Below, piece by piece: positions 43,705 through 61,638 of a DNA stretch of 64,000 nucleotides. The DNA is taken from positions 65,737 through 129,736 of the forward strand of contig JAGQKV010000012.1 in NCBI GenBank assembly GCA_020429915.1. The letters run 5' to 3'. The notes below the pieces were generated by a model, which was given only the letters and a program-made list of their open reading frames with translations, was not told the origin of the DNA and made no database searches. Position 1 is the first letter of the stretch. Each line of letters opens with the position of its first letter. Both the position numbers and the translations under genes were made by a program. The DNA comes from Candidatus Omnitrophota bacterium (lineage in GTDB: Bacteria > Omnitrophota > Gorgyraeia > Zapsychrales > Zapsychraceae).

Positions 43705-44649
43705 ATGCGTTCCAAGCTATATCTCACATTATTTGCCGCCCTTGCACTGGCCGGGTATCTCAGCCGATTCGGCTTCTGGTTCGATCTGACCACGCATTTT
43801 CAGCCGCAGTATCTGATCGGATTGTTGGCCTGCGCCGGATTCTGCGCCTGGCAACGGCGCTGGAGGACCATGGCCGTGGCTGTCATCTGCGCGGCGATCC
43901 CTTTAAGCCGGATCCTTCCTTTATATATGCCGCTCACCCGCACCGCCCATGCCGGCCCCGCATCCACGCTTTCCCTACTGCTGGTCAATATCAAGGCCGA
44001 GAACCGTCAGTTTGAGAAGCTGCGCGCCTACATCCGGGAGTCCGATCCGGACATTATCGCGCTGGAAGAGTTCAATGAACTTTGGCACAATGAACTTTCG
44101 CCGGTATTGAAGGATTACCCGTACACCATTCATGAATTCAGAGCAGACAATTTCGGCATCGGATTATACAGCCGTCTGCCGGTCGAGAATCTCAAGATCA
44201 AGCGCTTTAGCGATGTTCCCAGTATCTCAGGAGACTTGACCGTCAACGGCCGGCCGCTCACGGTCCTGGTGACACATCCCATCCCGCCGGTCCGTCCGAG
44301 CGCCTTCCGCTACCGCAACCGGCACTTCGCCAACATGGCGGCCGCCCGCGGGGAGTATCACGATAACCTTGTGCTCATCGGCGACTTGAACTCGTCGTCC
44401 TGGTCGTATTTCTTCCAGAAACTGGCCGCGGATATGGGCCTGCGCGACTCACGCGAGGGGTTCGGCCTGCAGTTTTCCTGGCCGACGATGACGGCCTTGC
44501 TGCTGACCACCATTGATCATGCCCTGGTCAGTGATAATATCGTTGTTAATGAAAGGCGTATCGGGAAGGACATCGGATCGGATCACTTTCCGGTGTATCT
44601 TGAGATCGGGGTCAGCGGTCCGCGGGCGGTTACTCCGTCAGCCAACTGA
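43705..44649 (+). CDS. Endonuclease/exonuclease/phosphatase (EEP) family membrane protein
   Basis: 2-3 N-terminal TM helices and EEP motifs (LLLVNIKAEN...LIGDLNSS...SDHFPV). Confidence 0.8.
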   Translation: MRSKLYLTLFAALALAGYLSRFGFWFDLTTHFQPQYLIGLLACAGFCAWQRRWRTMAVAVICAAIPLSRILPLYMPLTRTAHAGPASTLSLLLVNIKAENRQFEKLRAYIRESDPDIIALEEFNELWHNELSPVLKDYPYTIHEFRADNFGIGLYSRLPVENLKIKRFSDVPSISGDLTVNGRPLTVLVTHPIPPVRPSAFRYRNRHFANMAAARGEYHDNLVLIGDLNSSSWSYFFQKLAADMGLRDSREGFGLQFSWPTMTALLLTTIDHALVSDNIVVNERRIGKDIGSDHFPVYLEIGVSGPRAVTPSAN

Positions 44650-47600: not shown

Positions 47601-49783
47601 GTCTGAATCCCCCGGTCCTGGCGGAGTTCGCGATAGTAGTCGCCGCGCGACCGTCGCGCGATTTCCTTCCACTCAGGAGCATGATCTTCTCCGAGATATT
47701 TCTGAGTACGCGGGCCGTTGTGAACGTCGACCTTATCGCGCATGATTTGAAGGATTTGAACCACTTGTTTGAGCAGCTGCGGATTGTTACGGACAAACGG
47801 ACTCGCTTCCCGCAAGCGGTCGGCGAGAATTTCGTCCAGCAGACTTCCGGAGCGCATCATTTCCCATGCCATGTTCAGCGAGTTATCGTACGTGCCGCGG
47901 AAGATCCCCAACAGGTCGACGGTCAGGACAGCCGCCTCACCGTCACGCCCCAACCCCAAAGTAAAAGGCGCTACCGTATTGACGGCCAACCGGATATCGG
48001 TCTGCCCCCAGCCACTGACGTCATCACCGTTGGAATCCAGGAAACTTTTCAGCGAGTCGAGCGCATGCCGGACCAGGGCCGCATACACTTCATCGTCGAG
48101 TTCGCGCAGCTGTCCCAGAATCTCGGTCAACAACTCACGGCGGCGGTTACCGTCGCGGGGGATGCTTTGCAACCGTCCGGCGAGCGCCTCAAACACGCGG
48201 CGCTGTTTGTAGCCGTATTTGTCGGTCCTGATCCGATAACCGGCCAGCGTATCCAGCAACGGTTTCAAGGCGGCCAGCTTCTCGGAACTGCGACCCGCCT
48301 CGCCCAGTTCTTCCAGCGATCGGCGCAGGGCCTGCGCAGACGCCCGCAGCCCCTCTTCACCGCCCGGCACGTTTAATTCACGTTCGGGAAATCCGATCCC
48401 AAAGACATAACCGCGGTCGTCATCTACCTCAATTTCAGTGCGTTCTTCCGAACCTTCCACCGCCACGGTCGCCTTACGAAACTGGCGATACCGGATACCG
48501 TCCATCACCACTTCATAACTGCCGAAATGGTACGTATCGTAAAAAGGCAGGACCGCACGGTCGCTCAGACGACCGACTCTGTCAAAGGCGATATCCTCTG
48601 CGCCGGCCGTCCCCCGCCCGCGCAGACCGGTGTTGACCGACAGAATCTTTCCCTGGGGCACGATCTGAGCTGCCACGCTCCCGGGTTCGATTTCCCTGAT
48701 TTGCTGCGGGAGTTTGGAATGGTTCACGCCTCCGGAGAAGTACTTCTTGGGGATAATCTCATCGAGCTGTGGATCGTATTCCTCCTTGATATAGCTGTAC
48801 ACCCCTTCTTTAAAGGCCGTCACGTATTGTTCGTAAATCTTCCGGTTAATCTCGCGGTCCGCTACGTCCACTCCGTCGACACGGTTCTTGTCGACATAGA
48901 CCCGGCTCAGGAAGCTCTCGCGCAGGTTCTTCTTGTACCACGTGGCCAGGATCATGGAATGGTAAATCTGCCGCAAGTTGGAGAATGTCCGGCCGTTGTT
49001 GACCTCGCGTTCGATCTCGGGAATAAGGATCTCCCGGACGATTTGGGAGGACACCTCGGACAAGACATTGGTGTCGCCTGGTTTTTCGGCGGAATGATGT
49101 TCCAGGGCGAGGTAATCCTCCTCCAACATGACTTTCAGCCGGCTGTTGACGACATACACCGTCTGTCCCTGCACGACCACATCGGCCGTCTCCGGAACGA
49201 TCCAGATCTTATTATAGGTGTTGACCGGGACGTCGGTGGTCCCGAACTCAGTCTGGGCCCGTTGATAAACACGGTCCCAAAACTTCTTTCCCAACTCATC
49301 TTCGGGATAGATCATGGAAGCCGTCAGCTGTTTGAGCAGATAGTCCTGCGCCAACAGATCACGCCCCATTTCCGTCCGGCCGAATTCATCCGGAATGATC
49401 CGGTCCCGCTCGAACGGCGACAGGTTGACCCACATCTTGTCTTCCGAGACCGTCAACGCAGCCAGGAAATACTTAATGAGGCGGGTTGACTCGCGCTGCA
49501 AGTCGACTCCGTCCAAATCCTGTTCACCGGTATCGATCAGAAAGTCAAACTGAAGAGGATTGTCCGCATCAATGGTCACCCCGCGTATGATGGCGGGATG
49601 AAAGTCGGGGGTGACATACAACATCGTACCCGGCTCGGGCAAATCAAGGACAGTCGCGGGCTGTGCCGCAAAGGAAGACCCCGGGACCAGTCCGGTATTG
49701 ACAGCCAAAACGCAGGCCATAAATGCCCGGAGGAAACGGCTCCAGACGGTCATGTTCGCATTGTTTCTATGCATAGTTGTCAT
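44630..49783 (-). CDS. Giant multidomain protein of unknown function (about 1700 aa) with a signal peptide, one late TM helix and a LysM-like C-terminal region
   Basis: Continuous 1730-codon ORF. A probable Met start at 49783 or 49753 precedes the SP-like RAFMACVLAVNTGLVPGSSFAAQPA. An E/R-rich low-complexity block lies in the middle. A TM helix appears at about aa 1370 (TLIITLVAALLITPYIY). The C-terminal region is LysM-like (YSVQPGDRLELIAQRFYG). Confidence 0.75.
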   Translation of the reverse strand: MTTMHRNNANMTVWSRFLRAFMACVLAVNTGLVPGSSFAAQPATVLDLPEPGTMLYVTPDFHPAIIRGVTIDADNPLQFDFLIDTGEQDLDGVDLQRESTRLIKYFLAALTVSEDKMWVNLSPFERDRIIPDEFGRTEMGRDLLAQDYLLKQLTASMIYPEDELGKKFWDRVYQRAQTEFGTTDVPVNTYNKIWIVPETADVVVQGQTVYVVNSRLKVMLEEDYLALEHHSAEKPGDTNVLSEVSSQIVREILIPEIEREVNNGRTFSNLRQIYHSMILATWYKKNLRESFLSRVYVDKNRVDGVDVADREINRKIYEQYVTAFKEGVYSYIKEEYDPQLDEIIPKKYFSGGVNHSKLPQQIREIEPGSVAAQIVPQGKILSVNTGLRGRGTAGAEDIAFDRVGRLSDRAVLPFYDTYHFGSYEVVMDGIRYRQFRKATVAVEGSEERTEIEVDDDRGYVFGIGFPERELNVPGGEEGLRASAQALRRSLEELGEAGRSSEKLAALKPLLDTLAGYRIRTDKYGYKQRRVFEALAGRLQSIPRDGNRRRELLTEILGQLRELDDEVYAALVRHALDSLKSFLDSNGDDVSGWGQTDIRLAVNTVAPFTLGLGRDGEAAVLTVDLLGIFRGTYDNSLNMAWEMMRSGSLLDEILADRLREASPFVRNNPQLLKQVVQILQIMRDKVDVHNGPRTQKYLGEDHAPEWKEIARRSRGDYYRELRQDRGIQTLAGLIRQLERLADIEEPGKRSLRFEANLPQRVTAILEFIYGRPQLREQAEFAGTYTPETVDEIVALFDAISPELGVKLQAAETEEIDWSQYIVQVPESDRRTTGGTSTRTEREEEEARAARERERTKEQIMVHARELLGERESTKRTFGVGDSSSAYSQGEDAASGERDISFGFERESTRRDDRREPEQAIFVPLEVTSRQYLDRMQPAVEAMAETKDPSLRTMIFFSEVLPQLLMASAHEVATTDMLRLTRRGAGLLDSSVEKIFSRLLQRSFSPSLIGKGLRGYSANVRRNRALIEDLARDLRNNPFLKEQMVYVQLEVLERTQNFSDGSQQNVSILSSQAFRIDAIEIDTDGPRNRRGALPEIYYLGQRIDRVDEDIAALGFTWNGDTFGVVLKDIIDGETYSDVLPHLFERPFRTYGGRGIHRLSELIRRGVQRDYPRFPGADQIEAILRSRHASTGIHERQHTRDELNGVQNRYYGAGRRIAQETTAYLSSIAYGDAPYTDLVKVIELHISLNSGLAALFAGQNAVIYGQATGNILNLFAQRLGVDDFDLNNRLLDSNADLMDAALALSAAELKAMAADILDEVLALQKRGKPYAPVFAAQSGASEAAAVELAATEAGVTRAGFSDVTEATLIITLVAALLITPYIYSRHNPGGDLDGAENDSEPLVTEQGPVPPLNALPRYLDEPSILIPPDVFRDLVPLIEPLMDYSARPDVHITGVSDVEGFITRRGAAMGTLSGIAKLYFDNYFAYPEIHSANASELDLDPLPDPADYNAVRGFYYLPQNVSLIVPGGLEVAYSVQPGDRLELIAQRFYGIQADGSPTPLAEWDGIFNRPLYQRIMDRNGIRRPEDLQANTTIIIPTNQLEYARNILGVRPDAQETAVQQGEQSTDRAVLSRPVGGIDLNAGNMELHSSGDVIQMNVPAELQELQTVPVNGFVPVIINISPVLNLPLILGGGINGDSLAGGPEPEVVPAESADQISWLTE

Positions 49784-50023
49784 CAGGACGTCTTGATTGG
49801 GGCTATATAGTTTAGCACACAACGGTTTGGGTCACCAGCGCCGCCTGCGGGCGCGCGACATCCTGTAAATATATGCTATGGATAACTTTATGCATCAATC
49901 ATAAAGATAGTTGAGTATGAACTGATGACGACCGACGATCCGCGCCGCCGCATCGCTATATATAATATCGAATTAATATTAATAAAAATAAGCTTCCGCG
50001 GCAAATATGTGCGGCTTAATAAA

Positions 50024-50052
50024 TTGACAAGCCAGCACCTGAGTGATATATT
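50024..50052 (+). promoter_or_regulatory. Consensus sigma70 promoter (TTGACA-17-TATATT) driving the tRNA pair
   Basis: TTGACAagccagcacctgagtgaTATATT. The -10 ends 26 nt upstream of tRNA-Ala. An AT-rich UP-like tract precedes the -35. Confidence 0.7.
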
Positions 50053-50077
50053 GGGTGATATTTTGCAGCGAAATGAC

Positions 50078-50150
<73 letters not shown>

Positions 50151-50256
50151 TATCTTTTTGGCGTACCGGCCGCTGACGAGCGCTCTGCGAGGACCTGGAT
50201 GACTTCGATGATTGCTCCCACAGCATTTTCGTATTCGGCCGTAACCGCCTCCTTTT

Positions 50257-50340
50257 GCTGGAGTGGTGAAATTGGTAGACGCACTGGATTCAAAATCCAG
50301 CGGGGGCGACCCCATGAGAGTTCGAGTCTCTCCTCCAGCA
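50257..50340 (+). tRNA. tRNA-Leu (anticodon CAA)
   Basis: 84 nt. Acceptor stem GCTGGAG/CTCCAGC with discriminator A. Anticodon loop TTCAAAA. Long variable arm. T-loop TTCGAGT. Confidence 0.9.
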
Positions 50341-50422
50341 TTACTCCCCCTTTCCTTTAATACCGCACGGCCATTGACCCTCCGGACATCTTAAGATACA
50401 CTTGAGAAAAAGGAGACCGCCC

Positions 50423-50956
50423 ATGAAAAATGTGATCCCGCTCCTCGTAGTGCTGTTCGTAGCCGCCACCGGCATCAACGCCGACGCTGAAACCAAGACC
50501 AAGCTGATCCACCTGCGTGACGGATCTTCACTGACCGGTAATGTGCTCTCCCTCAACCGGGGCGAGTACACCATCCAAACCAAGAATCTCGGTGTCATGA
50601 AAGTCCGCCAGGACGATATTGTCAGCATCTCGAACCCCGGCTTTGCGCCGCAAGAAGCCCAGGCAGCGGAACCGCTGATGCCCGGCCAGATGGCACCGCA
50701 TCTGACCAAATCCAACCTGGGACACCAAGTGCAGACACTGCAAAGCAGCATCATGGGCGATCCGGAACTGGTCGAGGACATTCAGGTGTTGATGAGCGAT
50801 CCGGAGATCGTCAAGATCATCCAGGACGAAACGTTTATGCAGAAAATCATGACGCTTGATATGGATTCTATCGAGAACGATCCGCGATACCGGGACCTCA
50901 TGTACAATCCCCGCATGCGGCGCTTCATTCAGAAACTCCAGGCGCGCGATCAATAG
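50423..50956 (+). CDS. Secreted hypothetical protein
   Basis: MKNVIPLLVVLFVAATGINA signal peptide. AGGAG RBS. The track start at 50402 lies upstream of the RBS. Confidence 0.6.
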   Translation: MKNVIPLLVVLFVAATGINADAETKTKLIHLRDGSSLTGNVLSLNRGEYTIQTKNLGVMKVRQDDIVSISNPGFAPQEAQAAEPLMPGQMAPHLTKSNLGHQVQTLQSSIMGDPELVEDIQVLMSDPEIVKIIQDETFMQKIMTLDMDSIENDPRYRDLMYNPRMRRFIQKLQARDQ

Positions 50957-50972: not shown

Positions 50973-52814
50973 TTAGTACGGGACACGCAGGTTCCACAGC
51001 TGCGGATTGCGTGGCAGCGTCGGCCGCTCCGCCGAATTGATCAGCGCGTCGTCGGGAAGGTCATTGAGGGGGACAGGCCGGCGGCTCGTCAAACCGAAAC
51101 GTTTGGCATTTAATATCAGATGCCGCGCCCCGAAAGTCTTGTATTCCTTATTCAAAGCCCCCGCCTCTTTTCGAATCATCACAAAGCTGTGCCGGTAGTC
51201 GCTGACAAAGTCCTGAATGAACTTGTCGGTAATCGCCTTGCGGCCGGCCAGAACCTCGACCTTGTCGCTGTTCTCCTGCCTCACCCTGAGTTGGCTTTTC
51301 TCGTTAAACATGGGCGACAAGAGCTTCAGAGCCTCCGGGTTGTCATTCTCCAGGGTAGAGAAATACGGAGTAATCTCCGCAAAACCGGCGGCACGCAGCG
51401 TCGAGAAGTATACTTCCCAATATTGCCGGTCATGCAGATCAACGATCTCTGAAGCATCGAATACACCAAACCCGCCCTCCGCCAATGACGTCAGGACGAA
51501 GTGAAAGAATTCGCGGCTGTAGAGTTTGCTGAGATCGTAATCCTTGACCCGGGGAAAGTCCATGTAAATAGCGTCATACAGCGTGTCGTTGTGACGCAGG
51601 TAGTGGTAAGCATCGGCGGCGATCGTTTTGACCCGCGGATCGGCGAGAGCGCCGCGATTGGCGTAACGCAGCACCGGGTCCTCTGACGCGACTTTGAGTA
51701 TCTGCCGGTCGATATCGACAAGGGTGACTTCTTTGACGTCGGGGTATTTTAAAATCTCGCGCAACAACAATCCGTCGCCGCCGCCGAGAATCAGCACCCG
51801 CCGGGGGACCCGGTTATTGTATATGACAGGGACATGCGCGAAATACTCGTGGTTGATATTCTCGGTATCGAGTCGGAACTGGAAAAAACCGTCCATAAAC
51901 AGCACGACCCCTTTAGGGAACTCCGGGTCCTTGTCGAATTTGCCGCTGTAAATCGCCCACAGGTCGTCGAAGACATCCTCCTCGGGCGGATAATACACCA
52001 GATCAATTTTTTGATAAGGTGAACTCAACCGGGTCACCGTGGGCCATTCTTTCATCGGCCGGAAGAGGTCCCGGATGCTTTCGGCGCTTTGGGCGTAGTA
52101 GTAATACTTCTGGAGAAAATATTGATTCAGACTCTTGGCCTGCCACAAACCGGCGCTCATGAGCAGCAGCACGACACTCACGGCACCGCGCCGCAGCCAG
52201 CCGCGCGGCAGATCGAGTTGGAGGTAAAGCGCGGCCAGAATATTGATTAATCCGACGATAAAGGCGATGGTGAGCAATTCAAATCGCGCCAACAAAACCA
52301 GCGGAAACAGGACTGCGCCGCACAGGGAGCCGAAATAATCGATACTCAGAATACGGTTGGTGATCCCGGGGCCCTTATCGTTAGTGGCCTGACCGATCCC
52401 AATCAAAAGCGGCAACTCGCACCCGGTCAAGAACCCGATCTTTACAACCGCGCCGAGGACCACCAGATAGAAGATCCACGCCATATCGAAAAAGTTGTTA
52501 TTGACCCAGATATACCGGACCACCATATGGGCCACGTGGATAACCGCCAGCGACAACCCGCCGATCAGACTCAACAGGATTTCCACGCGCACCAGGGCGG
52601 CGCGGCAGTCCTCGTCGCCGAACCAGTGCCGGTAATTTAGCGCGCCGAGCCCCATCGATCCGAGAAAGGCCCCCAGCCCCAGACTGTACCAGACCACCGT
52701 ATTGGCGGCATAGAACGATACGGTCTGCGCCAGCAACAATTCATATACAATGCTGCACGCCGCCAGCAGGAAGGTAATCGCGTAGAGTGACTTATTGCCG
52801 CCACGGAACTTCAT
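50973..52814 (-). CDS. speE: Membrane-embedded polyamine aminopropyltransferase (spermidine synthase-like): N-terminal multi-TM domain plus SpeE catalytic domain and a C-terminal extension
   Basis: About 7 TM helices over aa 1-220. Then the spermidine-synthase motif VLILGGGDGLLLREILKYPDVKEVTLVDID and D...DFP. Total 613 aa. Confidence 0.8.
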   Translation of the reverse strand: MKFRGGNKSLYAITFLLAACSIVYELLLAQTVSFYAANTVVWYSLGLGAFLGSMGLGALNYRHWFGDEDCRAALVRVEILLSLIGGLSLAVIHVAHMVVRYIWVNNNFFDMAWIFYLVVLGAVVKIGFLTGCELPLLIGIGQATNDKGPGITNRILSIDYFGSLCGAVLFPLVLLARFELLTIAFIVGLINILAALYLQLDLPRGWLRRGAVSVVLLLMSAGLWQAKSLNQYFLQKYYYYAQSAESIRDLFRPMKEWPTVTRLSSPYQKIDLVYYPPEEDVFDDLWAIYSGKFDKDPEFPKGVVLFMDGFFQFRLDTENINHEYFAHVPVIYNNRVPRRVLILGGGDGLLLREILKYPDVKEVTLVDIDRQILKVASEDPVLRYANRGALADPRVKTIAADAYHYLRHNDTLYDAIYMDFPRVKDYDLSKLYSREFFHFVLTSLAEGGFGVFDASEIVDLHDRQYWEVYFSTLRAAGFAEITPYFSTLENDNPEALKLLSPMFNEKSQLRVRQENSDKVEVLAGRKAITDKFIQDFVSDYRHSFVMIRKEAGALNKEYKTFGARHLILNAKRFGLTSRRPVPLNDLPDDALINSAERPTLPRNPQLWNLRVPY

Positions 52815-52817
52815 AGG

Positions 52818-53171
52818 CTAATATCCGCGCTCCAGTATCCGCTGTTTCATATCCCTGGCCCCGAACTCGCGCCGGACGTGTTCCACCGCCTGTTCCGGAA
52901 GCATCTCCCCGCAGGTGAGGATATCAAAGGCTACAAACTCATCCTCCGGCCACGTGTGAACGGAAAAATGCGATTCGGCGATCAGGATCACGCCGGTCAC
53001 GCCGTGCGGTTCGTATTGCTTGAAAAAATGTTCCACCACGGTCGCACGGCTGACTTCTGCCGCCTGCAACAGCACGGGCTTGACCTGCTCCACCCGGCTG
53101 ATTTTCTCCGCCGGGCAGCCGATCAATTCAATGAGGAAATGGCGACCGAATGAATGTTTCAATTTATCCAC
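52818..53171 (-). CDS. speH: S-adenosylmethionine decarboxylase proenzyme, small class 1A, pyruvoyl-dependent
   Basis: AESHFSVHTWPE self-cleavage/pyruvoyl site. 117 aa. Confidence 0.85.
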   Translation of the reverse strand: MDKLKHSFGRHFLIELIGCPAEKISRVEQVKPVLLQAAEVSRATVVEHFFKQYEPHGVTGVILIAESHFSVHTWPEDEFVAFDILTCGEMLPEQAVEHVRREFGARDMKQRILERGY

Positions 53172-53174
53172 GGA

Positions 53175-53876
53175 CTAAACTCCTTTATTGAGGTACAGAT
53201 CCACGCAAAACTCCTTGATTCCCGGCGTAAATATCAAACCGATCGCCATAACGATAAAAAGGGCGACTTGAAAATACAGTAACGGATAAAAACGCCTCGC
53301 CTCTTCCCTGTCCGGTTCCGTATCGAGATAGTTGGTCAGCAAGCCGGCGCAACTGTTCAATAACCCGGTTATAAACGCGGCCATCACCAAGCCGGTGACC
53401 GGATAGTAGATAAACGCGAACACCATTGTTCCGATGACCGCGCCGAAATAGCTGAAGCCGAGCACCTTGCTTTCCGCGTGCGGGACCTCGTCCTTCATCA
53501 GTTCCATCAGGATCGGCAGTTCCTTACCGGTGAGATATCCGACAAGCAGAATCAACCCGTGAGACAACACGGCAAACAACGGTCCGGAACCGAACAGACG
53601 GTCCAATCCGTACAGCCACAGCATCAGAAAACCGCCCGCGAAGGTCAGCCATATCTCGGTCCTGAGAAGCTGGCACCGCGGGTTTCGCAAGCCGCTTTCC
53701 ACGGACCGCGCGCCCAAACCCATGGCAAAAAGGTACAGACCGATCGTCACGCTGTAGCGCAGGACGGTATTACGCAAAAACAGACAGAGCGACTGCGCCA
53801 GCAACAACTCATAGCAGATGCTGCACAGGGAAACGACAACAGTAATGAAAAGTAAGAGTGTCTTGCGATCAGGCAT
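53175..53876 (-). CDS. Transmembrane-only paralog of the spermidine-synthase N-terminal membrane domain
   Basis: 233 aa and all TM. The N-terminus LLLFITVVVSLCSICYELLLAQSLCLF aligns with LYAITFLLAACSIVYELLLAQTVSFY of the 613-aa SpeE-like protein. No catalytic domain. Confidence 0.65.
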   Translation of the reverse strand: MPDRKTLLLFITVVVSLCSICYELLLAQSLCLFLRNTVLRYSVTIGLYLFAMGLGARSVESGLRNPRCQLLRTEIWLTFAGGFLMLWLYGLDRLFGSGPLFAVLSHGLILLVGYLTGKELPILMELMKDEVPHAESKVLGFSYFGAVIGTMVFAFIYYPVTGLVMAAFITGLLNSCAGLLTNYLDTEPDREEARRFYPLLYFQVALFIVMAIGLIFTPGIKEFCVDLYLNKGV

Positions 53877-54924
53877 AATCGACTTTCCTGCGGCGATCGA
53901 TAATATAAGCGATCAGATAACCAATGATTAATGTGCCGGCGACCAGACCGAGGTAAGCGGCCAGCGCCTGCGGAAAGGTCATGCGAAAATGAAAAAGGAC
54001 ATAATGGGTGGCGTGATACCCCGCGATCGTATTCAGCAGGAATAACCACAAAATAGCCCGCCCCATCTTGACCATGAACGACCGTTCACACAACCGCCGC
54101 CACTGCTCGCTCCGGCGAAACAGCGTTTCCAGCCCCCAAATCCAAACCATGCTCGTCCCGGTAATGCCCAGGATATAGAACGGCGACGCCTTAAACATAT
54201 CCCCTCCCCACAGCGCCGTGGTCACTACCGGATGATAGTCGCCGGTCGCCAGGGACACGGCGACCAGCGCCAGCCCCGCCGGCAGCAACGCGCCGAACAG
54301 CCTTCCGTTACCCGTCTCCAAGACATAACCGATGAGCAGTCCGGCGGTAAAAACGAACAACCACGGACACAACGGCCAAAAGTGTTCCCCCGTCTGGGAG
54401 CCGATGACAATCGCATACCAGTACTGGTCGGACAACTCTTGCCACGGAAACCGGTCGGACAGCGCCAGAGCCGCGCACCCCATGCCGAACGCCATTCCCA
54501 CACCGACCGCCCGCGGCAGCCAGCGGATGAGCGGAAACGTCATCATCATCGCCAGGGCGATAAACTGCAGGACATCCCATTCGTCGATGCCGTATATCCC
54601 CCAGCACATGTAGTTGATCAAAAATCCCAGCGACAACAACCCCAGCGCCCGCTTGGCGACAAATCCGAAACCGCTATTTTTGCGGACGGTAGCGATGTAA
54701 AACGTCACCCCCGCCAGCAACGGCACTTCGAACCCGAACACATGCAGACTGAAATAACCGAAGCAGGGAAACGGCCCGGCCATCTCGGGCCAACGCATTT
54801 CAAACCGGGTGAGATCAAGCCACATCCACACCCATTCATGCAGACCGATCAGATAGATGATGCCCAATCCCTTGAGAAATTCAATGCTGGTATAGCGACG
54901 ACTACTCATAACGCGGCAAAACAT
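53869..54924 (-). CDS. Acyltransferase-3 (AT3, OatA N-terminal-like) family integral membrane protein
   Basis: About 10 TM helices. N-terminal AT3 signature R..(I)EFLKGLGIIYLIGLH corresponds to the family pattern R..LDGLRG.A...V..H. Confidence 0.6.
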   Translation of the reverse strand: MFCRVMSSRRYTSIEFLKGLGIIYLIGLHEWVWMWLDLTRFEMRWPEMAGPFPCFGYFSLHVFGFEVPLLAGVTFYIATVRKNSGFGFVAKRALGLLSLGFLINYMCWGIYGIDEWDVLQFIALAMMMTFPLIRWLPRAVGVGMAFGMGCAALALSDRFPWQELSDQYWYAIVIGSQTGEHFWPLCPWLFVFTAGLLIGYVLETGNGRLFGALLPAGLALVAVSLATGDYHPVVTTALWGGDMFKASPFYILGITGTSMVWIWGLETLFRRSEQWRRLCERSFMVKMGRAILWLFLLNTIAGYHATHYVLFHFRMTFPQALAAYLGLVAGTLIIGYLIAYIIDRRRKVDYA

Positions 54925-56128
54925 CCTCGGTTAAGTAGCGCGCGATATGCCCGGCCATCAGCGCGTGCATGCGGCCGGAGTTGTGGCCGTCATCGGTGTA
55001 GTAGACCGGATCGCGGACATTGATTCTGTCATTATAAATCAAGTCGTTCAGATCCAGGACATGATATTGCTGTTTTTCCCAATGTTGCGCGAAGCGCAGA
55101 TACTGTTTCGGCTGCCCGGCCGCCTTCCGGACGAGGTCCTTGCCGGTGGGCAGAATCAGGATGACGGGGATAGCGCCTTCTGCACGGACCGCGCCGACGA
55201 ACCGGTCGATCACGACCGTGGCCACGCGGTAACCCTCGGAGTCGATATTAAAAATATTGTCTTTGAGGAACAACATATCCGGGTGCTGAGCCCCCGAGAG
55301 CTGATAACCGACCAACTTCAGATAGCGCACCATTGCCAGGTGATCCCATCCGCCGCTGCGGTACAACTGGTGATAATAGAAGTCATGTTCGCCGAGCCGG
55401 CGGATCGTGGCCGCGGGCTTATTCAACAGTAAGCGGTAATCCTCAAGCTGCTGAAAGGGGTTCTGCACCTCGGTGAGCTGTCCGTCCTGTTCCAAAAACC
55501 TCGGTTTGGTCAGCGGGAATTCTGTTTGGGGGGAATAAAACGGCCGGAAGACATTCAGATTGCGAAAGACATTCTCGCTGTTAAAGCCGAAGATGACGAT
55601 TCGCGGGTGATAGTCCCGCCCCTCATACCGGTAACGCCAATAGGCCTGATCCTGCGCGTACCCGCTGACCCCGAAATTAAGGACCTCCCACTCCGGACGC
55701 AGCCCTTCGAGTTGCGCCTGCCAGGTATCGGGATACGTTACCCCGTGCCCGAACGTAAAGGAATCACCGAAGGTGGCTACACGCAACCGGTCCGCAGCCG
55801 GCCGCGCATCAACGACCGCCGCAGCCGCCCTGAAGCCCTGCGTATTGCACCGGAAGCCGGTCTTGGTCGTCGCCGGGTTGGGCACCCAGCCCAACCGCGC
55901 GTGATAACGGATGTGACCTTCTTCGCCGGCGAGCATGCGGCGGATAATGTCCCGCTGGCCGTCGCTCAAGCGAGCTTCCGGCAATGGAGAATATTCGATC
56001 CCTTTCCACTTCTTTAATAATGACAGCGCTCCGGCGGCGGTCAGTTCGGCCACCAGAAATAATCCGAGAATCAGCAGGATAGAAAACAGGAAGTGGTTGA
56101 AACGGCGTTTTGCGGCTGGTTGTTGCAT
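54902..56128 (-). CDS. Membrane-anchored SGNH/GDSL hydrolase-family protein
   Basis: N-terminal TM anchor and block-I motif ATFGDSFTFGHG. Overlaps the AT3 gene by 23 nt. Confidence 0.7.
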   Translation of the reverse strand: MQQPAAKRRFNHFLFSILLILGLFLVAELTAAGALSLLKKWKGIEYSPLPEARLSDGQRDIIRRMLAGEEGHIRYHARLGWVPNPATTKTGFRCNTQGFRAAAAVVDARPAADRLRVATFGDSFTFGHGVTYPDTWQAQLEGLRPEWEVLNFGVSGYAQDQAYWRYRYEGRDYHPRIVIFGFNSENVFRNLNVFRPFYSPQTEFPLTKPRFLEQDGQLTEVQNPFQQLEDYRLLLNKPAATIRRLGEHDFYYHQLYRSGGWDHLAMVRYLKLVGYQLSGAQHPDMLFLKDNIFNIDSEGYRVATVVIDRFVGAVRAEGAIPVILILPTGKDLVRKAAGQPKQYLRFAQHWEKQQYHVLDLNDLIYNDRINVRDPVYYTDDGHNSGRMHALMAGHIARYLTEDVLPRYE

Positions 56129-56184
56129 ACAAACATATCATCGCGGGACGGCGTCCCTGCGGCCAATAAGCGGTTGTCACCGGC

Positions 56185-57789
56185 TCATTGCCGGTTGAGC
56201 CCCAGCGCCTTGGGCGGCGCAACGGTAGGCGGAAAGCGGCGGTCAATCCGGATACGTGTCGCCCCGCGTACCGGCCACCCCATCCGTTCGCAGATATGAC
56301 GCCAGATGTGATACAGATTATATTTCGCGTACAGGATGTGGCTGACGGACAAGCGCCCCAAGCTGAAGACGACATCGGCGCAGAAAAGGGCCAAGTTACT
56401 GACGAACGGCGGGGCCTTGCTGAAAAATTTGGGATCCAAATGAGGCCGCAACCATGCAGGGACCTGCGGCATCAGTTTGAGAACGACCTGGTAGCCGCGA
56501 TAAATCGGCAAATGCTCCGGCTGAATGGTCCGGTTCGGTCTGAGAAAGACGGTCAGCTCCAGCCCGTCGTTCATCTTCTCCACATCGGCCGCGGTAATCC
56601 GGCCGGAGGCCAGCGCCTGCCCGACGATCTCGGTCCCCGGATAAAACATCACAAAATACGTGTCGATCATACCCGGCGTGCTGCGCAGAAAGAGTTGTCG
56701 CGCCATTTCCTGTGACTCGAGCGGCTCGCCCGGCAATCCGAACAGATGGTGGGCACGGACGTGGATATGATATTTCTTCAACCAAGCGATCGACTCGGCG
56801 ACCTTGTCATTCTTTTCTGAACGTTTGACCACGCGACGCTTGAACGACTCGTTCGCGCTTTGCACGCCCAAGTCCACCTGCACGCAACCCGCCTCGGCCA
56901 GCATGCGGGCGATATCTTCACTCATGTAATTGGCATGGATCTCCACCTGGAACGGCAGTCCGATTTCTTCACCGTAACGCTCACAAAATTCCTTGAGCCA
57001 CGGTTTATTGATGATAAAAACGTCGTCATAAAAACGGATCAGCCGTGGCCGGTAGCGTGCCTTGACGACACGTAACTCTTCCATGACGTGATCGACGCTA
57101 CGCTGCCGGATATAACCGGTTTTTTTGTCCCCCGGCAGGTTGGCGAAGAAACTGTTAAAACAGAAGGTGCAGCGATAGGGACAACCCCGGGAGGCCATCG
57201 TCAGATAGGAGTCGTGCTGCGGGACGTATTCTTCCCATATGGCTTTGTCGTAATGCGGCAGGGAATCCAGATCCATCACGAATCCGTCCTGGGGTCCGCG
57301 CACCCGTGTTCCGTCGGGCAATTTGTAGAGCGTGTTGGAGATTTCCTGTCCGGTCAGACCGCCGTTCTCCAGGGCCGCGCAGATCCGCGGAAAGGCCAGG
57401 TCGGCCTCACCGATCACTACGATATCCACCTCCGGCTGATCGATCACCCGATCGGGCAGTGCCGAGGGGTGCACCCCGCCGAAGATAACCTTCACCCCGG
57501 GACGCAGGGACTTGGCCTCCCGTGCGATGCTCAGCGCCCACTGATAAGTCGCGGTCAACACGGAAAAGGCCAAGACGTCGGGTTGAGTTTCTCTGATTTT
57601 GTCGATCACCCGCTGACGGTCGTCGAACATGCGGGCAAGGAAGGGAACGTGGAGATGGTCGCGGTCGTGAAAGAGGGATACGCTGAAGGCCAGATGGACC
57701 TCGTGCCCTTCCCTCTTGAGGATCGCGGAAAGCTGGGAAATTCCCAGACTCTCAAATCCAACCGTGGCAAACGTGACGACCATAGGCAT
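56185..57789 (-). CDS. B12-binding domain radical SAM protein
   Basis: N-terminal cobalamin-binding Rossmann-like domain and radical SAM cluster motif ASRGCPYRCTFC. Confidence 0.8.
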   Translation of the reverse strand: MPMVVTFATVGFESLGISQLSAILKREGHEVHLAFSVSLFHDRDHLHVPFLARMFDDRQRVIDKIRETQPDVLAFSVLTATYQWALSIAREAKSLRPGVKVIFGGVHPSALPDRVIDQPEVDIVVIGEADLAFPRICAALENGGLTGQEISNTLYKLPDGTRVRGPQDGFVMDLDSLPHYDKAIWEEYVPQHDSYLTMASRGCPYRCTFCFNSFFANLPGDKKTGYIRQRSVDHVMEELRVVKARYRPRLIRFYDDVFIINKPWLKEFCERYGEEIGLPFQVEIHANYMSEDIARMLAEAGCVQVDLGVQSANESFKRRVVKRSEKNDKVAESIAWLKKYHIHVRAHHLFGLPGEPLESQEMARQLFLRSTPGMIDTYFVMFYPGTEIVGQALASGRITAADVEKMNDGLELTVFLRPNRTIQPEHLPIYRGYQVVLKLMPQVPAWLRPHLDPKFFSKAPPFVSNLALFCADVVFSLGRLSVSHILYAKYNLYHIWRHICERMGWPVRGATRIRIDRRFPPTVAPPKALGLNRQ

Positions 57790-57807
57790 AATTCGGGTTG
57801 ATGACGG

Positions 57808-57836
57808 ATGATAACGGGCCCCCGGGACCCGGTCAA
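57808..57836 (-). promoter_or_regulatory. Sigma70-type promoter (TTGACC-17-TATCAT) for the rSAM-SGNH-AT3-speE operon
   Basis: Minus strand reads TTGACCgggtcccgggggcccgtTATCAT. The spacer is a GC-rich near-palindrome. The -10 is about 19 nt from the rSAM ATG. Confidence 0.5.
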
Positions 57837-57886: not shown

Positions 57887-58420
57887 CTACTCGTTCTCGG
57901 AGATGATTTTACCCTGGAGCAGACGAACCAGCAGATCGGCCTCCTGAGGGTCGATCACCTTGGTGGATTCGGTGAAGTTGGCGATGCGCTCTTTTTGTTT
58001 GAGAAAGAACACGATATCACCCAGCACCCGGATGGCGTCCAGCAACCGCGCCCGCAGGTTCGCGGCGGCCTTGAAATCGGGATTGCTCCCCTCGGCTTGA
58101 GCCATCTCCCCGACCAGACGCTTGAGTTCCGCGACCCAGTCGTTGTAATTGTTTTCCAGTTTGACGTAGTAGTCGGCGTCCCCGCAGATCCACATCTTGA
58201 TCAGCTCGATCTCCTCGGCCGTTAGTTCCTGTTTGCTCTGTAACTTGCCGATAATCCCCTCCACCTCGGACTTGGTAACGGCCTGGATGTGTTCGCGCAA
58301 GGCGGCGTCCAGGTCCTGCATGGTGGTGGACAAACGCCAGCAGCTTCCGGTACTGAAATTTCCCTCCAAGGAGGCGAATTGGCTCTGGATCTCGTTCAGG
58401 GATGCCTTAAAATCACTCAT
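57887..58420 (-). CDS. Soluble hypothetical protein, predicted helical
   Basis: 177-aa ORF with AGGAGAA RBS. An extended -10 TGATATAAT lies about 45 nt upstream (58461..58469). Confidence 0.55.
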   Translation of the reverse strand: MSDFKASLNEIQSQFASLEGNFSTGSCWRLSTTMQDLDAALREHIQAVTKSEVEGIIGKLQSKQELTAEEIELIKMWICGDADYYVKLENNYNDWVAELKRLVGEMAQAEGSNPDFKAAANLRARLLDAIRVLGDIVFFLKQKERIANFTESTKVIDPQEADLLVRLLQGKIISENE

Positions 58421-58530
58421 CGGATTCTCCTATCTGTACATTGTGGGACGTGGATTTGCCTCAATTATATCACATCCGGCAGTTCCCCGCCGGGTGAAGA
58501 ACAGCGCCCCCGGCGAAGGGACACACAGGC

Positions 58531-59439
58531 TTAACCGGCCGCGGCAGCCGCTTTTTCGGACACGCGGACATTCATCGGCGGCGCCGATCCGTCCTTGTCT
58601 TTTCCCATGTAGAGCGTCACATGGGGGAACGGGATCTCGATATCCCGCTCGTCAAAGCGTTTCTTGAGTCGCTTATTGAATTCACGGCCGACCGCCCACT
58701 GCTTGATAGGCTTGGTCATTGTCCGCGCCTTGATTATCACGGCGGAATTGTCGAACTTGTCCAGCCCGAGGATCTCGATCGGGGCCAAGATGTCCTTTTT
58801 GAATTCCGGATCCTGACGCAGCTCTTCATCGACCGCCTTAATGACCTCAATCACCTCATCGACGTCTTCACGGTAAGCGACACCGATATCGAATACGTAA
58901 CGGGAATACTCTTTCGTCATATTGGTCACCACCCCGATCTGTCCGTTGCGGACGTAATGGACGTTGCCGGCGAGGTCGCGCAGGATGACCATGCGCAGGG
59001 TGACCTTTTCCACCAGGCCGCCTTTGTCGGCGATATTGACCACGTCGCCGACCCGGATTTGATCTTCCAAGAGAATGAAGAAACCGCTGATCACGTCTTC
59101 AACCAGTTTCTGTGCCCCGAAACCGACCGCCAATCCGACAACCCCGGCCGTGGCCAGGATCGGACCGATGTCGATGCCGAGCTCCTTGAGAATCATCATA
59201 CCGGCCATAACGAAAATCCCGATTTTCAGAACATAGCGGACAATCGAACTCAGGGTATCGGTCCTTTTTTGCAATTCGGCATTATCGGCTTCCTTCTTGC
59301 TGATCCATTGGATCAATTTCGCGGACAGCAATTCCGCCGCCTTGAGCCCGATCACCATCAGGATCATTATCAGGACGATCTGGAGACCGCTGGTGATCAG
59401 CCACTCACCGACGGCCTGTAAATACTTTTGTGCATCCAT
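58531..59439 (-). CDS. Mechanosensitive ion channel, MscS family
   Basis: TM3-beta domain signature GVVGLAVGFGAQKLVEDVISGFFILLEDQIRVGDVV...IPN-like. Confidence 0.85.
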   Translation of the reverse strand: MDAQKYLQAVGEWLITSGLQIVLIMILMVIGLKAAELLSAKLIQWISKKEADNAELQKRTDTLSSIVRYVLKIGIFVMAGMMILKELGIDIGPILATAGVVGLAVGFGAQKLVEDVISGFFILLEDQIRVGDVVNIADKGGLVEKVTLRMVILRDLAGNVHYVRNGQIGVVTNMTKEYSRYVFDIGVAYREDVDEVIEVIKAVDEELRQDPEFKKDILAPIEILGLDKFDNSAVIIKARTMTKPIKQWAVGREFNKRLKKRFDERDIEIPFPHVTLYMGKDKDGSAPPMNVRVSEKAAAAAG

Positions 59440-59530
59440 TTTATTGCTCCTCTCACTTGCGTCTCGGCGTTAATTCACCCTTTATGTCAACCCTCCGAGT
59501 CGCCGCCTGATCGACGGCGCAAGAAATCTA

Positions 59531-61039
59531 TTACGGCTTCGGCCACACGCGGAATAATTGGCGGGGATAGCGGCCCGATTGCCAGCAGCTCTCCTGCCAA
59601 AATTCGTAAGGCCGAACCCCCACCGAATCCAGCCGGTAACCCTCCGTCATCATCGCAGCGAAGCGGCCCTGCGGATCATAATTATACAGACCATGTTCGG
59701 TTACGTAAACCGGGATTCCGCTGTTCAGCAGTCCGTCAAGCTCCCGGCGGAAGGCGGCGTGCGCCTCTTCATCGATGCGATACTGATCATGAAACCGGGA
59801 AAGCAGATTCAGATTGCTGTAGTAACGAAAGAACAGCGAATCGTCCACGGTGATGATGCGCGCATCCGGCGGGGCGAGCCGTGCCACCCAGCGAACGTAT
59901 TCCGGAATGGTCGCCTGCCGGTGCCGGGTCGTCAGGACCGGTTCGACCATACACACCATCCCGACCGCCATGACCACGGCCAGGAGCATGGCCAAAATAC
60001 GTCTGAACCGCCCGGCCGCACAATTATGGGAAAAGAAGCAGGCCATCAGGATGCACAGCGGCGGATGCAGGATGGTCAAAAATCGCGGGACCAGCGTGTA
60101 CAGCCGGCTGTACAACAGCACCGGGAAAAGCAGCCACAGCATCAAAAATAAATACGCCGGCCCGCCGCGCTGCTTCGACAATTTCCATCCCCCGATAAAG
60201 ATCAGCATGATCCCCACCGGAGTAAATGTATAAATGATGTGATAGAGGATATTCAGCAACGGCTTGAACAACAGCCCGATGGAAGCATGCGGAATCACCG
60301 ATGCCTCCTTATACTTCACGAATTGGGCCAAATAGGCCGCCCGTTCACTGCCGATGAGGTACGGCAGATAAAAGATGCTCATCGCCGCTGCCGCGACGGA
60401 ACCGAACACCAAGAAAGTCCGCAAGCGGTCCCGCGTGCTGACGGTCCACAACAAAAAGGCCAGCGGCACCGCCATCAGCACCAGATTCTGCAACCGGGCC
60501 GCCCCCAGAAACCCGATGAACGCCGCCGCGACGACCAAATCCCTTCCCCGCCCGGAATCCCGAAAACGCAACAGAAAATTAATCCCGGTCAGTAAGAAAA
60601 AGAGTGCCGGCGTATGACTCAATCCGTAAGTGGAAACCGCCAGAAATATGGGGGTCACCGATAAGAAAAATGCCGCGAAAAACGCGGTGTCGCGGTCAAT
60701 GAGGCGCCGGGTTACCTGATATAGCAACGGTACGCAAGCAGCTCCCATCACGACACTCATGAAGTTAACGGCCAGCACCGGGTCATGCACGCCGACGATC
60801 TTACCCAACAGGACAAAGATTCCGCCGCACACAATGGTGAGCGGATAACCCGATCCGAAAGAGTAGGACAATTGCAGGGTGGTGACGAGCTGCTCGGCCT
60901 TTAATGCCAGATTCAGGGTATCGACACTGTAGGGGCCGATACTGATCCAGAGTAACCGCGGCACAAAACTGACCACGAACAGTAGTGTAGCGACAACGCC
61001 CGCCGGGATCTGCCGCCGTGAGTGTGATTCAGACGTCAC
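59531..61039 (-). CDS. GT-C fold membrane glycosyltransferase-like protein (ArnT/PMT-like)
   Basis: 502 aa, about 12 TM helices in the N-terminal two-thirds plus a C-terminal soluble domain. Fold-level call only. Confidence 0.5.
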   Translation of the reverse strand: MTSESHSRRQIPAGVVATLLFVVSFVPRLLWISIGPYSVDTLNLALKAEQLVTTLQLSYSFGSGYPLTIVCGGIFVLLGKIVGVHDPVLAVNFMSVVMGAACVPLLYQVTRRLIDRDTAFFAAFFLSVTPIFLAVSTYGLSHTPALFFLLTGINFLLRFRDSGRGRDLVVAAAFIGFLGAARLQNLVLMAVPLAFLLWTVSTRDRLRTFLVFGSVAAAAMSIFYLPYLIGSERAAYLAQFVKYKEASVIPHASIGLLFKPLLNILYHIIYTFTPVGIMLIFIGGWKLSKQRGGPAYLFLMLWLLFPVLLYSRLYTLVPRFLTILHPPLCILMACFFSHNCAAGRFRRILAMLLAVVMAVGMVCMVEPVLTTRHRQATIPEYVRWVARLAPPDARIITVDDSLFFRYYSNLNLLSRFHDQYRIDEEAHAAFRRELDGLLNSGIPVYVTEHGLYNYDPQGRFAAMMTEGYRLDSVGVRPYEFWQESCWQSGRYPRQLFRVWPKP

Positions 61040-61638
61040 GATTTGATAATCTCCACGGGGTTGTTAAAAAGATTCGCATTGGGAATCAATACAGTCCGGT
61101 TATCACTCTCCAAGGTGGTGTAACGCAGGTCGACGCGGCGCACGGTCCCGTCGTACCCGGAGACCTTGATATGCGATCCGATGCGAAACGGCTGGTACAC
61201 CAGGACAAGCACGCCGGCCAGGACGTTGGACAGCGCATCTTTCAGGGCAAATCCCAGAGCGAAACCGGTCAGGCCCAGCCCCGCGACCATAGCCGCGACA
61301 TCAATACCCATTGTCCCCAATCCGGCAATCAGTCCGACAACGATCAGCACCATTTTCACAATGCGCCCCAACAGATAAAAAACATCCTGCTGAATCCGCG
61401 ATTTCGTGGCCAGCGTCAGAATTATCTTTTCAATGACGATGGCTATCGCCCAGATAATCAAACAGGCCGCCACTCCGGCCAGAATGCGGGCCGGTGCGGT
61501 AATGAACAGCGATGCAACGGGCGCGGCGGTTTCGACGAACACGGTAACCTCCTCGATTGTGATGTCTTTTTTCTTTCCCGGACGCGTGGAGAAAGAAATA
61601 TTTAATGGTCCGATCACCGGATACGTTAACCGAAACAT
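61036..61638 (-). CDS. Small MscS-family mechanosensitive channel
   Basis: GLGLTGFALGFALKDALSNVLAGVLVLVYQPFRIGSHIKVSGYDGTVRRVDLRYTTLESDNRTVLIPNANL MscS signature. Confidence 0.8.
   Translation of the reverse strand: MFRLTYPVIGPLNISFSTRPGKKKDITIEEVTVFVETAAPVASLFITAPARILAGVAACLIIWAIAIVIEKIILTLATKSRIQQDVFYLLGRIVKMVLIVVGLIAGLGTMGIDVAAMVAGLGLTGFALGFALKDALSNVLAGVLVLVYQPFRIGSHIKVSGYDGTVRRVDLRYTTLESDNRTVLIPNANLFNNPVEIIKS

Follow-up and report, generated by a model that had tools for sequence, protein, structure and literature searches.

A widespread module of predicted half-MFS membrane domains, an AdoMet decarboxylase and a putative aminopropyltransferase, with lineage-specific acylation accessories in Candidatus Omnitrophota

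The gene cluster and its conserved core

The cluster of six genes analyzed here lies in a 64-kb stretch of contig JAGQKV010000012.1 (64,000 nucleotides, hereafter the window) from the assembly GCA_020429915.1 of a Candidatus Omnitrophota bacterium. Three of the genes, encoding a membrane protein with seven transmembrane helices (7-TM), a class 1b S-adenosylmethionine (SAM, AdoMet) decarboxylase (AdoMetDC) and a putative aminopropyltransferase behind a 7-TM domain of its own, comprise the unit that is conserved across phyla, which is a triad and not a hexad. It is a widespread, uncharacterised module, accompanied in this lineage by acylation accessories, and a variant of the known but unsolved pairing of AdoMetDC with fusions of a major facilitator superfamily (MFS) domain to a spermidine synthase (SpdSyn). 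The features of the cluster are listed below in the direction of transcription, with the short names used in the text; other loci are designated by numbers with the letter L.

57836-57808, minus strand: promoter-like site TTGACC-17-TATCAT, within the 97-nt gap upstream of the radical SAM gene
56185-57789, minus strand: rSAM, B12-binding (class B) radical SAM enzyme, 534 aa, with no assigned subfamily; a loosely associated accessory
54902-56128, minus strand: SGNH, SGNH/GDSL-type esterase or acyltransferase, 408 aa, with an N-terminal signal-anchor helix
53869-54924, minus strand: HGSNAT_cat/DUF1624 multi-pass membrane acyltransferase, 351 aa (346 aa in the public gene call, which starts at 54909)
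53175-53876, minus strand: TM-only, predicted free-standing half-MFS membrane protein, 233 aa, matching positions 18-231 (of 522) of NF002956 only
52818-53171, minus strand: SpeD, class 1b pyruvoyl SAM decarboxylase (SpeD/SpeH type), 117 aa, matching PF02675 and TIGR03330
50973-52814, minus strand: TM-SpeE, predicted half-MFS domain fused to an aminopropyltransferase, 613 aa, matching Spermine_synth and NF002956

All six minus-strand open reading frames (ORFs) named in a preliminary description of this DNA were found where it had placed them, and the minimal gaps and overlaps that it quoted proved correct on recheck. The SGNH and acyltransferase genes overlap by 23 nt (8 nt by the public gene call) and the acyltransferase and TM-only genes by 8 nt, gaps of 3 nt separate TM-only from SpeD and SpeD from TM-SpeE, and the rSAM gene is followed by a gap of 56 nt. 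The single promoter proposed for the six genes fared less well: the TTGACC-17-TATCAT site is indeed there, with 10 of 12 consensus matches, but the match is no better than chance, the region having 7 promoter-like sites against 6.1 +/- 2.5 in shuffled sequences. As the number of sites equals the chance expectation, the promoter was rejected as proof of one operon. The shared strand of the six genes is likewise unremarkable, because nearly every gene of the window lies on the minus strand. An Rfam search of the whole window for riboswitches and other RNA control elements returned two tRNAs only, and no further polyamine genes were seen among 20 more window proteins that were scanned. The proteins of the cluster are 94-100% identical to those of Candidatus Omnitrophota metagenome-assembled genomes (MAGs); the SGNH protein is indexed in 66 blocks of a public assembly collection and the SpeE cluster on 48 contigs.

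Conservation of the triad

Conservation was surveyed in species-representative genomes at 61 loci, in which all ORFs were scored with the window proteins. TM-only and a TM-SpeE of 600-660 aa occurred together in 50 of the 61 loci, in 48 of them at most 450 nt apart, and in about 41 a small AdoMetDC gene lay between the two. The loci belong to Omnitrophota, Planctomycetales-labelled MAGs, Legionellaceae, Binatia, Gemmatimonadetes, Bdellovibrionales, Desulfobacterales, Terriglobia and others, and they include Luminiphilus (strain records HTCC2080 and nBUS_07), so that the triad is also carried by cultured strains. The adjacency in 48 loci, together with the natural fusions described below, bears out the earlier proposal that SpeD and the two membrane proteins of the triad make up a functional unit. 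The supposition that the whole six-gene combination is conserved elsewhere did not survive the neighbourhood survey, which recovered the triad, with SGNH in two sister clades and rSAM intermittent. Literature searches, including one for split MFS transporters, yielded nothing that describes the triad, recognises its membrane domains as half-MFS or treats envelope aminopropylation.

In 12 loci (Luminiphilus, Ca. Endobugula, Binatia, Gemmatimonadetes, Anaerolineae, Nitrospinaceae) the triad is accompanied by a homologous MFS-SpdSyn protein of ~690 aa, whose gene immediately precedes TM-only in 11 of the 12. The sole such neighbour that was scanned (L027, 7971-10007) scored 65 bits against the fused MFS/spermidine synthase model NF037959 (cutoff 40). 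Neighbours of this type (L027, L034, L035, L037, L030, L038, L050, L021, L023, L043, L069) have the nucleotide-binding loop G(L/I)G(A/I)G, without the Asp that selects decarboxylated SAM (dcSAM), and their clusters encode two different membrane SpdSyn-like proteins per one SpeD. Lacking this Asp, the neighbours may use SAM or be non-catalytic.

A membrane aminopropyltransferase with a divergent acceptor site

TM-SpeE is composed of three parts:

52101-52814, minus strand: 7-TM domain, aa 1-238
51345-52052, minus strand: PABS/Rossmann catalytic domain, about aa 255-490
50976-51344, minus strand: conserved C-terminal extension (~120 aa), aa 491-613

Behind the N-terminal membrane domain, the protein matches Pfam Spermine_synth with 84.3 bits. 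It scored 285.3 bits against NF002956 (PRK03612), not reaching the equivalog cutoff of 472, and 18.3 bits against NF037959, under the cutoff of 40. Its AlphaFold2 (AF2) model (pLDDT 90.7, pTM 0.88) matches the fold of solved spermidine and polyamine synthases. The subfamily comprises at least 502 clusters at E<=1e-10, and nearly all of the best 120 listed span 91-100% of the query.

The GGGDG loop with D347 is invariant in 45 TM-SpeE homologs, as are Y267, Q268, the HE pair, D369, D401 and D419. The Asp of the GxG(D/E)G motif keeps out the carboxylate of SAM and thereby marks the enzymes that use dcSAM (PMC10349129); judged by its sequence, TM-SpeE, which bears this residue, should be an aminopropyltransferase of the dcSAM type. 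In the acceptor site, the canonical D-x-x-D-P is replaced by DFP in five of five aligned subfamily members (the motif 'MDF--P' is two residues shorter than 'DLTDP' of 1uir), and the 45 homologs all have D419 and P421, and nearly all F420. The predicted acceptor site is unlike that of characterised spermidine synthases. Since the dcSAM Asp is invariant and DFP stands in place of D-x-x-D-P, we consider TM-SpeE a putative aminopropyltransferase with a divergent acceptor site. As for the two membrane SpeE-domain proteins described previously, the 613-aa protein does have this domain, whereas the 233-aa protein matches the membrane domain only. Hence SpeD is not flanked by two aminopropyltransferases: there is only one, and the other partner is a paralog of its membrane domain that is devoid of a catalytic domain.

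A second, more divergent TM-SpeE paralog stands in tandem in L012 (5291-9169), L023 (4113-11543), L025 and L059. The L023 locus has three SpdSyn-like membrane proteins and one SpeD, which hints at successive transfers.

The identity of SpeD as an AdoMetDC, assumed from the outset, is borne out by scores above the cutoffs of both PF02675 (115.7 bits versus 25) and TIGR03330 (121.6 bits versus 75.65). The AESH processing site and the HTWPE and TCG motifs are conserved in alignment with the AdoMetDC structures of Aquifex (2iii) and Thermotoga (1tlu). Some SpeD homologs, including those of Omnitrophota, are ornithine or arginine decarboxylases (PMC10407285). For the 117-aa protein, adjacency and fusion to SpeE favour a true AdoMetDC.

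Half-MFS membrane domains, their fusions and topology

TM-only has no SpeE catalytic domain and no Pfam match, and NF002956 matches it with 110 bits within positions 18-231 only. Its family comprises about 100 clusters at 90% identity, mostly of about 210-270 aa with few fragments, and an exhaustive profile search returned 7,424 representatives at E<=1e-3, 627 of them at E<=1e-30. Alignment of TM-only with residues 5-237 of TM-SpeE by hhalign gave a probability of 100% (E 1.8e-54), and the paralogy of the two membrane domains spans their whole length, including the seventh helix and a short amphipathic helix. Structural comparison, for which the AF2 model of TM-only had a pLDDT of 90.9, revealed a six-helix MFS domain. 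Each membrane domain is thus modelled as one six-helix MFS domain plus a seventh helix, i.e., as half of an MFS transporter. The earlier notice that both proteins have N-termini of about seven TM helices was right in the number, yet these domains appear to be MFS halves and not simple anchors. The helices lining the cavity carry, in both halves, Y-E in TM1, E in TM3, G-x-E-L-P-L-L in TM4, D/Y in TM5 and N in TM6, and such conserved acidic residues would suit positively charged cargo, for instance dcSAM or a polyamine.

The domain architectures were counted in the best 145 of the 7,424 representatives of the half-MFS family. Free halves prevail (97/145), followed by half-SpeE proteins (30/145) and half-half-SpeE proteins of 718-764 aa (10/145); SpeD-half fusions account for four of the 145, and SpeD-half-SpeE and half-half proteins for two each. 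In the fusions, the position of SpeD is always N-terminal. The half-half-SpeE fusions suggest that both halves act as one unit. From the paralogy, the adjacency of the genes and these fusions we infer that the halves of TM-only and TM-SpeE pair into a split MFS.

In both families, Lys and Arg accumulate at the N-terminus and between helices 2 and 3, 4 and 5, and 6 and 7 (1.1-2.8 per loop), and they are rare in loops 1-2, 3-4 and 5-6 (0.02-0.5). This charge pattern corresponds to the usual N-in topology of MFS proteins, which would place the N-terminus, and SpeD with it, in the cytoplasm. The best 18-residue window of TM7 has a hydrophobicity of 2.06-2.26 with a low hydrophobic moment; being as hydrophobic as TM1, TM4 and TM6 and not amphipathic, TM7 should span the membrane. 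In the half-half-SpeE fusions TM7 is lost from the first half, leaving 6+7=13 hydrophobic segments ahead of SpeE; the first half ends after helix 6, as the topology requires. By crude hydropathy, the NF037959 fusions also have about 13 segments before the catalytic domain. With an odd number of helices (7 or 13) after a cytoplasmic N-terminus, the catalytic domain most likely lies on the side opposite to SpeD, i.e., in the periplasm.

In several loci (L046, L054 and L063-L067, from Desulfobacterales, Desulfovibrionaceae and one Omnitrophota) TM-SpeE occurs without a free TM-only gene, the SpeD gene often being upstream or divergently oriented; in L065 the two are fused as SpeD-TM-SpeE. In the absence of a TM-only gene the half-MFS domain would have to homodimerise.

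Accessory genes: acyltransferase, SGNH protein and radical SAM enzyme

The membrane acyltransferase matches PF07786 (HGSNAT_cat) with 43.3 bits against a gathering cutoff of 22, its L032 ortholog with 44.2 bits, and neither name given to it before, an AT3 acyltransferase or the membrane part of a split OatA, can be kept: no PF01757 (AT3) match was obtained at E<=0.01. The gene directly precedes TM-only, mostly with an overlap, in the window and at seven further loci (L010, L011, L016, L024, L028, L032, L039), and these eight species are all Omnitrophota or Planctomycetales-labelled MAGs. A metagenome search that started from the acyltransferase added L071, L072 and L074, in which SpeE or TM-only is adjacent in three more gene orders (acyltransferase, TM-only and SpeE in succession; SpeE followed by the acyltransferase; TM-only divergent from the acyltransferase). 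Since the linkage is kept through different gene orders, it appears functional and not accidental. The connection of the acyltransferase with the aminopropyl unit, drawn at first from one cluster, has thus gained in weight, and the enzyme is a clade-specific, robustly linked accessory. Comparison of the acyltransferase and SGNH sequences with the Protein Data Bank (PDB) gave no useful matches.

The SGNH label rests on residues rather than on the family score: Lipase_GDSL_2 matched with 26.1 bits, under the Pfam threshold of 32.9, but across 22 homologs G121-D122-S123, N151 and H382 are invariant and N186 is nearly so. Owing to the N-terminal signal anchor and the invariant GDS...H residues, the protein is predicted to be periplasmic and active and should be an esterase or acyltransferase. 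Distant homologs carry PF16822 (ALGX). Within the cluster, SGNH occurs only in the lineage of the window (L001, L002, L081) and in a sister clade (L003/L010, L082, L083), where its identity is 46-48% and the order is RlmN, SGNH, acyltransferase, TM-only, SpeD and SpeE. It was rejected as a core member or conservation anchor, because homologs of <=36% identity stand alone in unrelated contexts.

The B12-binding and Radical_SAM domains foreseen for the rSAM protein were confirmed by Pfam and NCBIfam (PF02310, 85.3 bits; PF04055, 88.9 bits), and its translation contains CPYRCTFC (CxxxCxxC). Every NCBIfam subfamily and PDB match lay far below family level, and assignment to a known subfamily was rejected (ApyD 114.9 bits versus 750; HpnJ 100 versus 577.6). 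The sister clade has the other five genes and lacks rSAM. One ortholog (61% identity) precedes the module in L011 and another (44%) follows SpeE in L014, an association that is loose but recurrent. In the lineage of the window (L001, L081) a five-gene block, absent from the sister clade, lies between RlmN and SGNH. Besides rSAM it contains, at 57887-61638 on the minus strand, genes for a truncated MscS-like protein (200 aa), a PMT_2 glycosyltransferase of the GT-C type (502 aa), a full MscS (302 aa) and a 177-aa protein without family. The block appears to be an inserted segment with which the rSAM gene arrived.

In L014 (5733-18735, an Omnitrophota MAG) a 788-aa protein with a UbiA-prenyltransferase domain is encoded directly upstream of TM-only, and the flanks further include GT2, two TM+TPR proteins and two B12-rSAM genes, a denser lipid/envelope context than that of the window.

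Comparison with known systems

Among described systems, the fused MFS/SpdSyn protein (NF037959) clustered with a class 1b AdoMetDC comes closest. MFS-SpdSyn fusions are reported by Li, Kurihara, Kim, Liang and Michael (2019, Biochem J 476:2579) to cluster with class 1b AdoMetDC, to yield no spermidine and not to complement speE, and that study reportedly proposed another aminopropyl acceptor. Li et al. 2019 is cited in PMC11237479 for 'aminopropylation of other substrates'. Common to that system and the window module are a transporter-type membrane domain joined to a SpdSyn-like domain, a linked small class 1b AdoMetDC, a role inferred to be other than spermidine synthesis, and, by hydropathy, ~13 TM helices before the catalytic domain, as in the fused half-half-SpeE proteins. 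In the window, by contrast, the MFS appears divided between a free and a fused polypeptide, each of 6+1 helices; the catalytic domain, nearer to PRK03612, has GGGDG in place of the G(L/I)G(A/I)G of the NF037959-type neighbours; and the conserved ~120-aa C-terminal extension and the acyltransferase and SGNH accessories are additional.

The annotated SpeE of Mycobacterium tuberculosis is an example of the membrane-anchored aminopropyltransferases of PRK03612/NF002956. TM-SpeE shares with them a multi-helix N-terminal membrane domain followed by PABS, and NF002956, its best NCBIfam match, covers both parts. It differs in the length of its subfamily (600-660 aa, with the C-terminal extension), in the DFP motif, in the sub-cutoff score and in having a free paralog of its own membrane domain as partner, this domain being a predicted MFS half and no mere anchor.

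The pair of acyltransferase and SGNH protein resembles OatA/OafA and PatA/PatB in logic only, in that an integral-membrane acyl-CoA-dependent acyltransferase is combined with an extracytoplasmic SGNH-fold enzyme in overlapping genes. The membrane enzyme of the window belongs to PF07786, not to PF01757 or MBOAT, and the pair sits inside an aminopropyl-transfer operon, unlike in either system. Compared with OatA/OafA, its SGNH protein is separate and divergent, with the Asp two, not three, residues before the His (DGH), and its distant relatives bear ALGX. The lysosomal HGSNAT transfers an acetyl group from cytosolic acetyl-CoA to an amine across the membrane.

A second, dedicated pair of class 1b AdoMetDC and aminopropyltransferase, in this respect like that of the window, is speD2-speE2 (PA4773-PA4774) of Pseudomonas aeruginosa, which is reported to be linked to surface polyamines (Johnson et al. 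2012). Production of norspermidine and antibiotic resistance have been suggested as its roles, and PA4774, unlike TM-SpeE, is a soluble 349-aa thermospermine synthase without a membrane domain, half-MFS partner or acyltransferase (PMC11107197).

The fungal NHMT, a resident of the endoplasmic reticulum, likewise consists of seven TM helices followed by a spermidine-synthase fold, and methylates secreted, signal-peptide-bearing lytic polysaccharide monooxygenases at the N-terminal histidine (PMC10349129). It is an architectural precedent for action on substrates of the secretory pathway, the side of the catalytic domain being unstated in that paper; unlike the window enzyme with its invariant Asp, NHMT has Ile at this position and uses SAM (PMC10349129). 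Its membrane domain is probably unrelated to the half-MFS of the window.

Proposed mechanism and alternative explanations

According to the mechanism that we propose, SpeD would make dcSAM at the cytoplasmic face of the inner membrane, where the TM-only half and the N-terminal half of TM-SpeE would assemble into a split transporter of the MFS type. Through this transporter, dcSAM (or the amine) would reach the aminopropyltransferase domain, which probably lies in the periplasm and would pass the aminopropyl group from dcSAM to an amine other than cytosolic putrescine. In this branch of Omnitrophota the HGSNAT-like and SGNH enzymes presumably acylate or acetylate the same extracytoplasmic target, and the B12-rSAM enzyme may act as an occasional accessory. 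We hold the overall picture, a split-MFS/aminopropyltransferase/AdoMetDC module acting on a non-cytosolic amine with lineage-specific acylation accessories, with about even confidence. A more specific version, in which the split MFS moves dcSAM across the inner membrane, from a SpeD docked on its cytoplasmic opening to the periplasm-facing transferase, and the amine of an envelope polymer or lipid is modified, followed by HGSNAT-like/SGNH acylation of the new amine or of a neighbouring group, is possible, though on balance doubtful. As for the acceptor, a lipid, a glycan or a long-chain polyamine is a matter of pure inference. What stands of the preliminary description is that the cluster does not serve ordinary cytosolic spermidine synthesis, which the data support, and that it is possibly envelope-directed, an extracytoplasmic target being plausible; the two aminopropyltransferases and the conserved six-gene unit had to be abandoned.

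Several points weigh against the proposed mechanism. Nine loci have TM-only and TM-SpeE with no adjacent SpeD. The heterodimer of TM-only and TM-SpeE is deduced from sequence, and the topology from charge bias, hydropathy and helix parity. As neofunctionalised SpeD homologs exist, the AdoMetDC activity is presumed here from the partnership with SpeE. The narrow distributions of SGNH and rSAM lend weak support to a role in the same pathway, and as the order AccA, RlmN and cluster is conserved, a part of the co-location in Omnitrophota could be inherited synteny. Finally, to our knowledge, dcSAM-dependent chemistry outside the bacterial cytoplasm has no precedent.

The best competing explanation, rather unlikely in our opinion, is synthesis-coupled export, in which a cytoplasmic catalytic domain would use dcSAM and a cytosolic amine to make spermidine or some longer or unusual polyamine, the split MFS would export this product straight into the periplasm or onto the cell surface and the HGSNAT-like and SGNH enzymes might acylate it. 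Efflux of a polyamine or another cation would fit the MFS fold with its conserved acidic TM residues; dcSAM and SpeD are cytoplasmic, the two or three membrane aminopropyltransferase paralogs of L012 and L023 are what iterative chain extension predicts, and a role in antibiotic resistance was suggested for the dedicated speD2/speE2 pair of P. aeruginosa (PMC11107197). This explanation is opposed by the odd helix count (7 or 13), which sets the catalytic domain opposite the cytoplasmic N-terminus, by the loss of TM7 from the first half of the fused proteins and by an acceptor motif unlike that of characterised polyamine synthases.

Two further explanations fit the data less well than either the proposed mechanism or synthesis-coupled export. 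Housekeeping synthesis of spermidine by a membrane-tethered SpeE and SpeD, with the other four genes as mere syntenic neighbours, is improbable: SpeD and SpeE do form the canonical spermidine route, the dcSAM-selecting Asp is kept, the AccA-RlmN-cluster synteny is conserved in Omnitrophota and the scanned window proteins include no other polyamine gene, but TM-only is adjacent in 48 loci of unrelated phyla and is found fused to SpeE or SpeD, the acyltransferase linkage survives rearrangement, the NF002956 score falls under its cutoff and the acceptor motif is altered. An obligatory six-gene machine, in which two membrane aminopropyltransferases, a split OatA of AT3 and SGNH and a B12-rSAM methylase would modify a lipid or glycan, is equally improbable, for in spite of the tight spacing from SGNH through SpeE, the rSAM orthologs beside the module in three lineages and three different positions, and the UbiA-family, GT2, TM+TPR and second B12-rSAM genes around the module of L014, only one protein has the catalytic SpeE domain, rSAM is missing in a sister clade having the other five genes, most acyltransferase-containing clusters lack SGNH and the acyltransferase falls outside Pfam AT3.

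Surroundings of the cluster

Other features of the window are as follows:

50402-50956, plus strand: secreted protein of ~176-184 aa with a faint STI1/HOP DP-domain match, convergent with the SpeE gene
50256-50341, plus strand: tRNA-Leu (CAA), just downstream of the cluster
50078-50150, plus strand: tRNA-Ala (GGC), just downstream of the cluster
44630-49822, minus strand: giant ORF, 1730 aa, with a marginal LysM match only
36551-38716, minus strand: fused BioD (AAA_26) and BioA (Aminotran_3), 721 aa, in a biotin gene group
20472-26876, minus strand: giant ORF, 2134 aa

The gene of the secreted protein also follows SpeE in L003 (13224-13754), L011 (12911-13432), L081 (12967-13500) and L082/L083 (~13218-13749); this may be conserved synteny or a further component. 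The best promoter-like site of the region, TTGACA-17-TATATT with an extended TG and 11 of 12 matches (50024-50052, plus strand), stands ahead of the tRNAs. Two ORFs are probably no genes: that at 49979-50341 on the minus strand overlaps the tRNA genes, and that at 50341-50781 runs antisense to the conserved gene at 50402-50956 on the plus strand. The biotin group also contains a BioF-like aminotransferase, an alpha/beta hydrolase, a BioC-like methyltransferase and BirA.

Significance

A small AdoMetDC is paired with a membrane SpdSyn-like protein in thousands of bacterial genomes, and the window exposes a split version of this pairing. The split form makes the architecture legible, with two predicted MFS halves, SpeD on the cytoplasmic side and the catalytic domain behind a helix of odd number; natural fusions tie the parts of the module together, and the accessory acyltransferases speak for a target outside the cytoplasm. 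If the catalytic domain is indeed periplasmic, the module would represent a new envelope chemistry, aminopropylation outside the cell, and the first dcSAM-dependent chemistry beyond the bacterial cytoplasm; it would explain the function of the 'polyamine-independent' AdoMetDC/membrane-SpdSyn systems, and would provide a rare MFS transporter built of two separate polypeptides.

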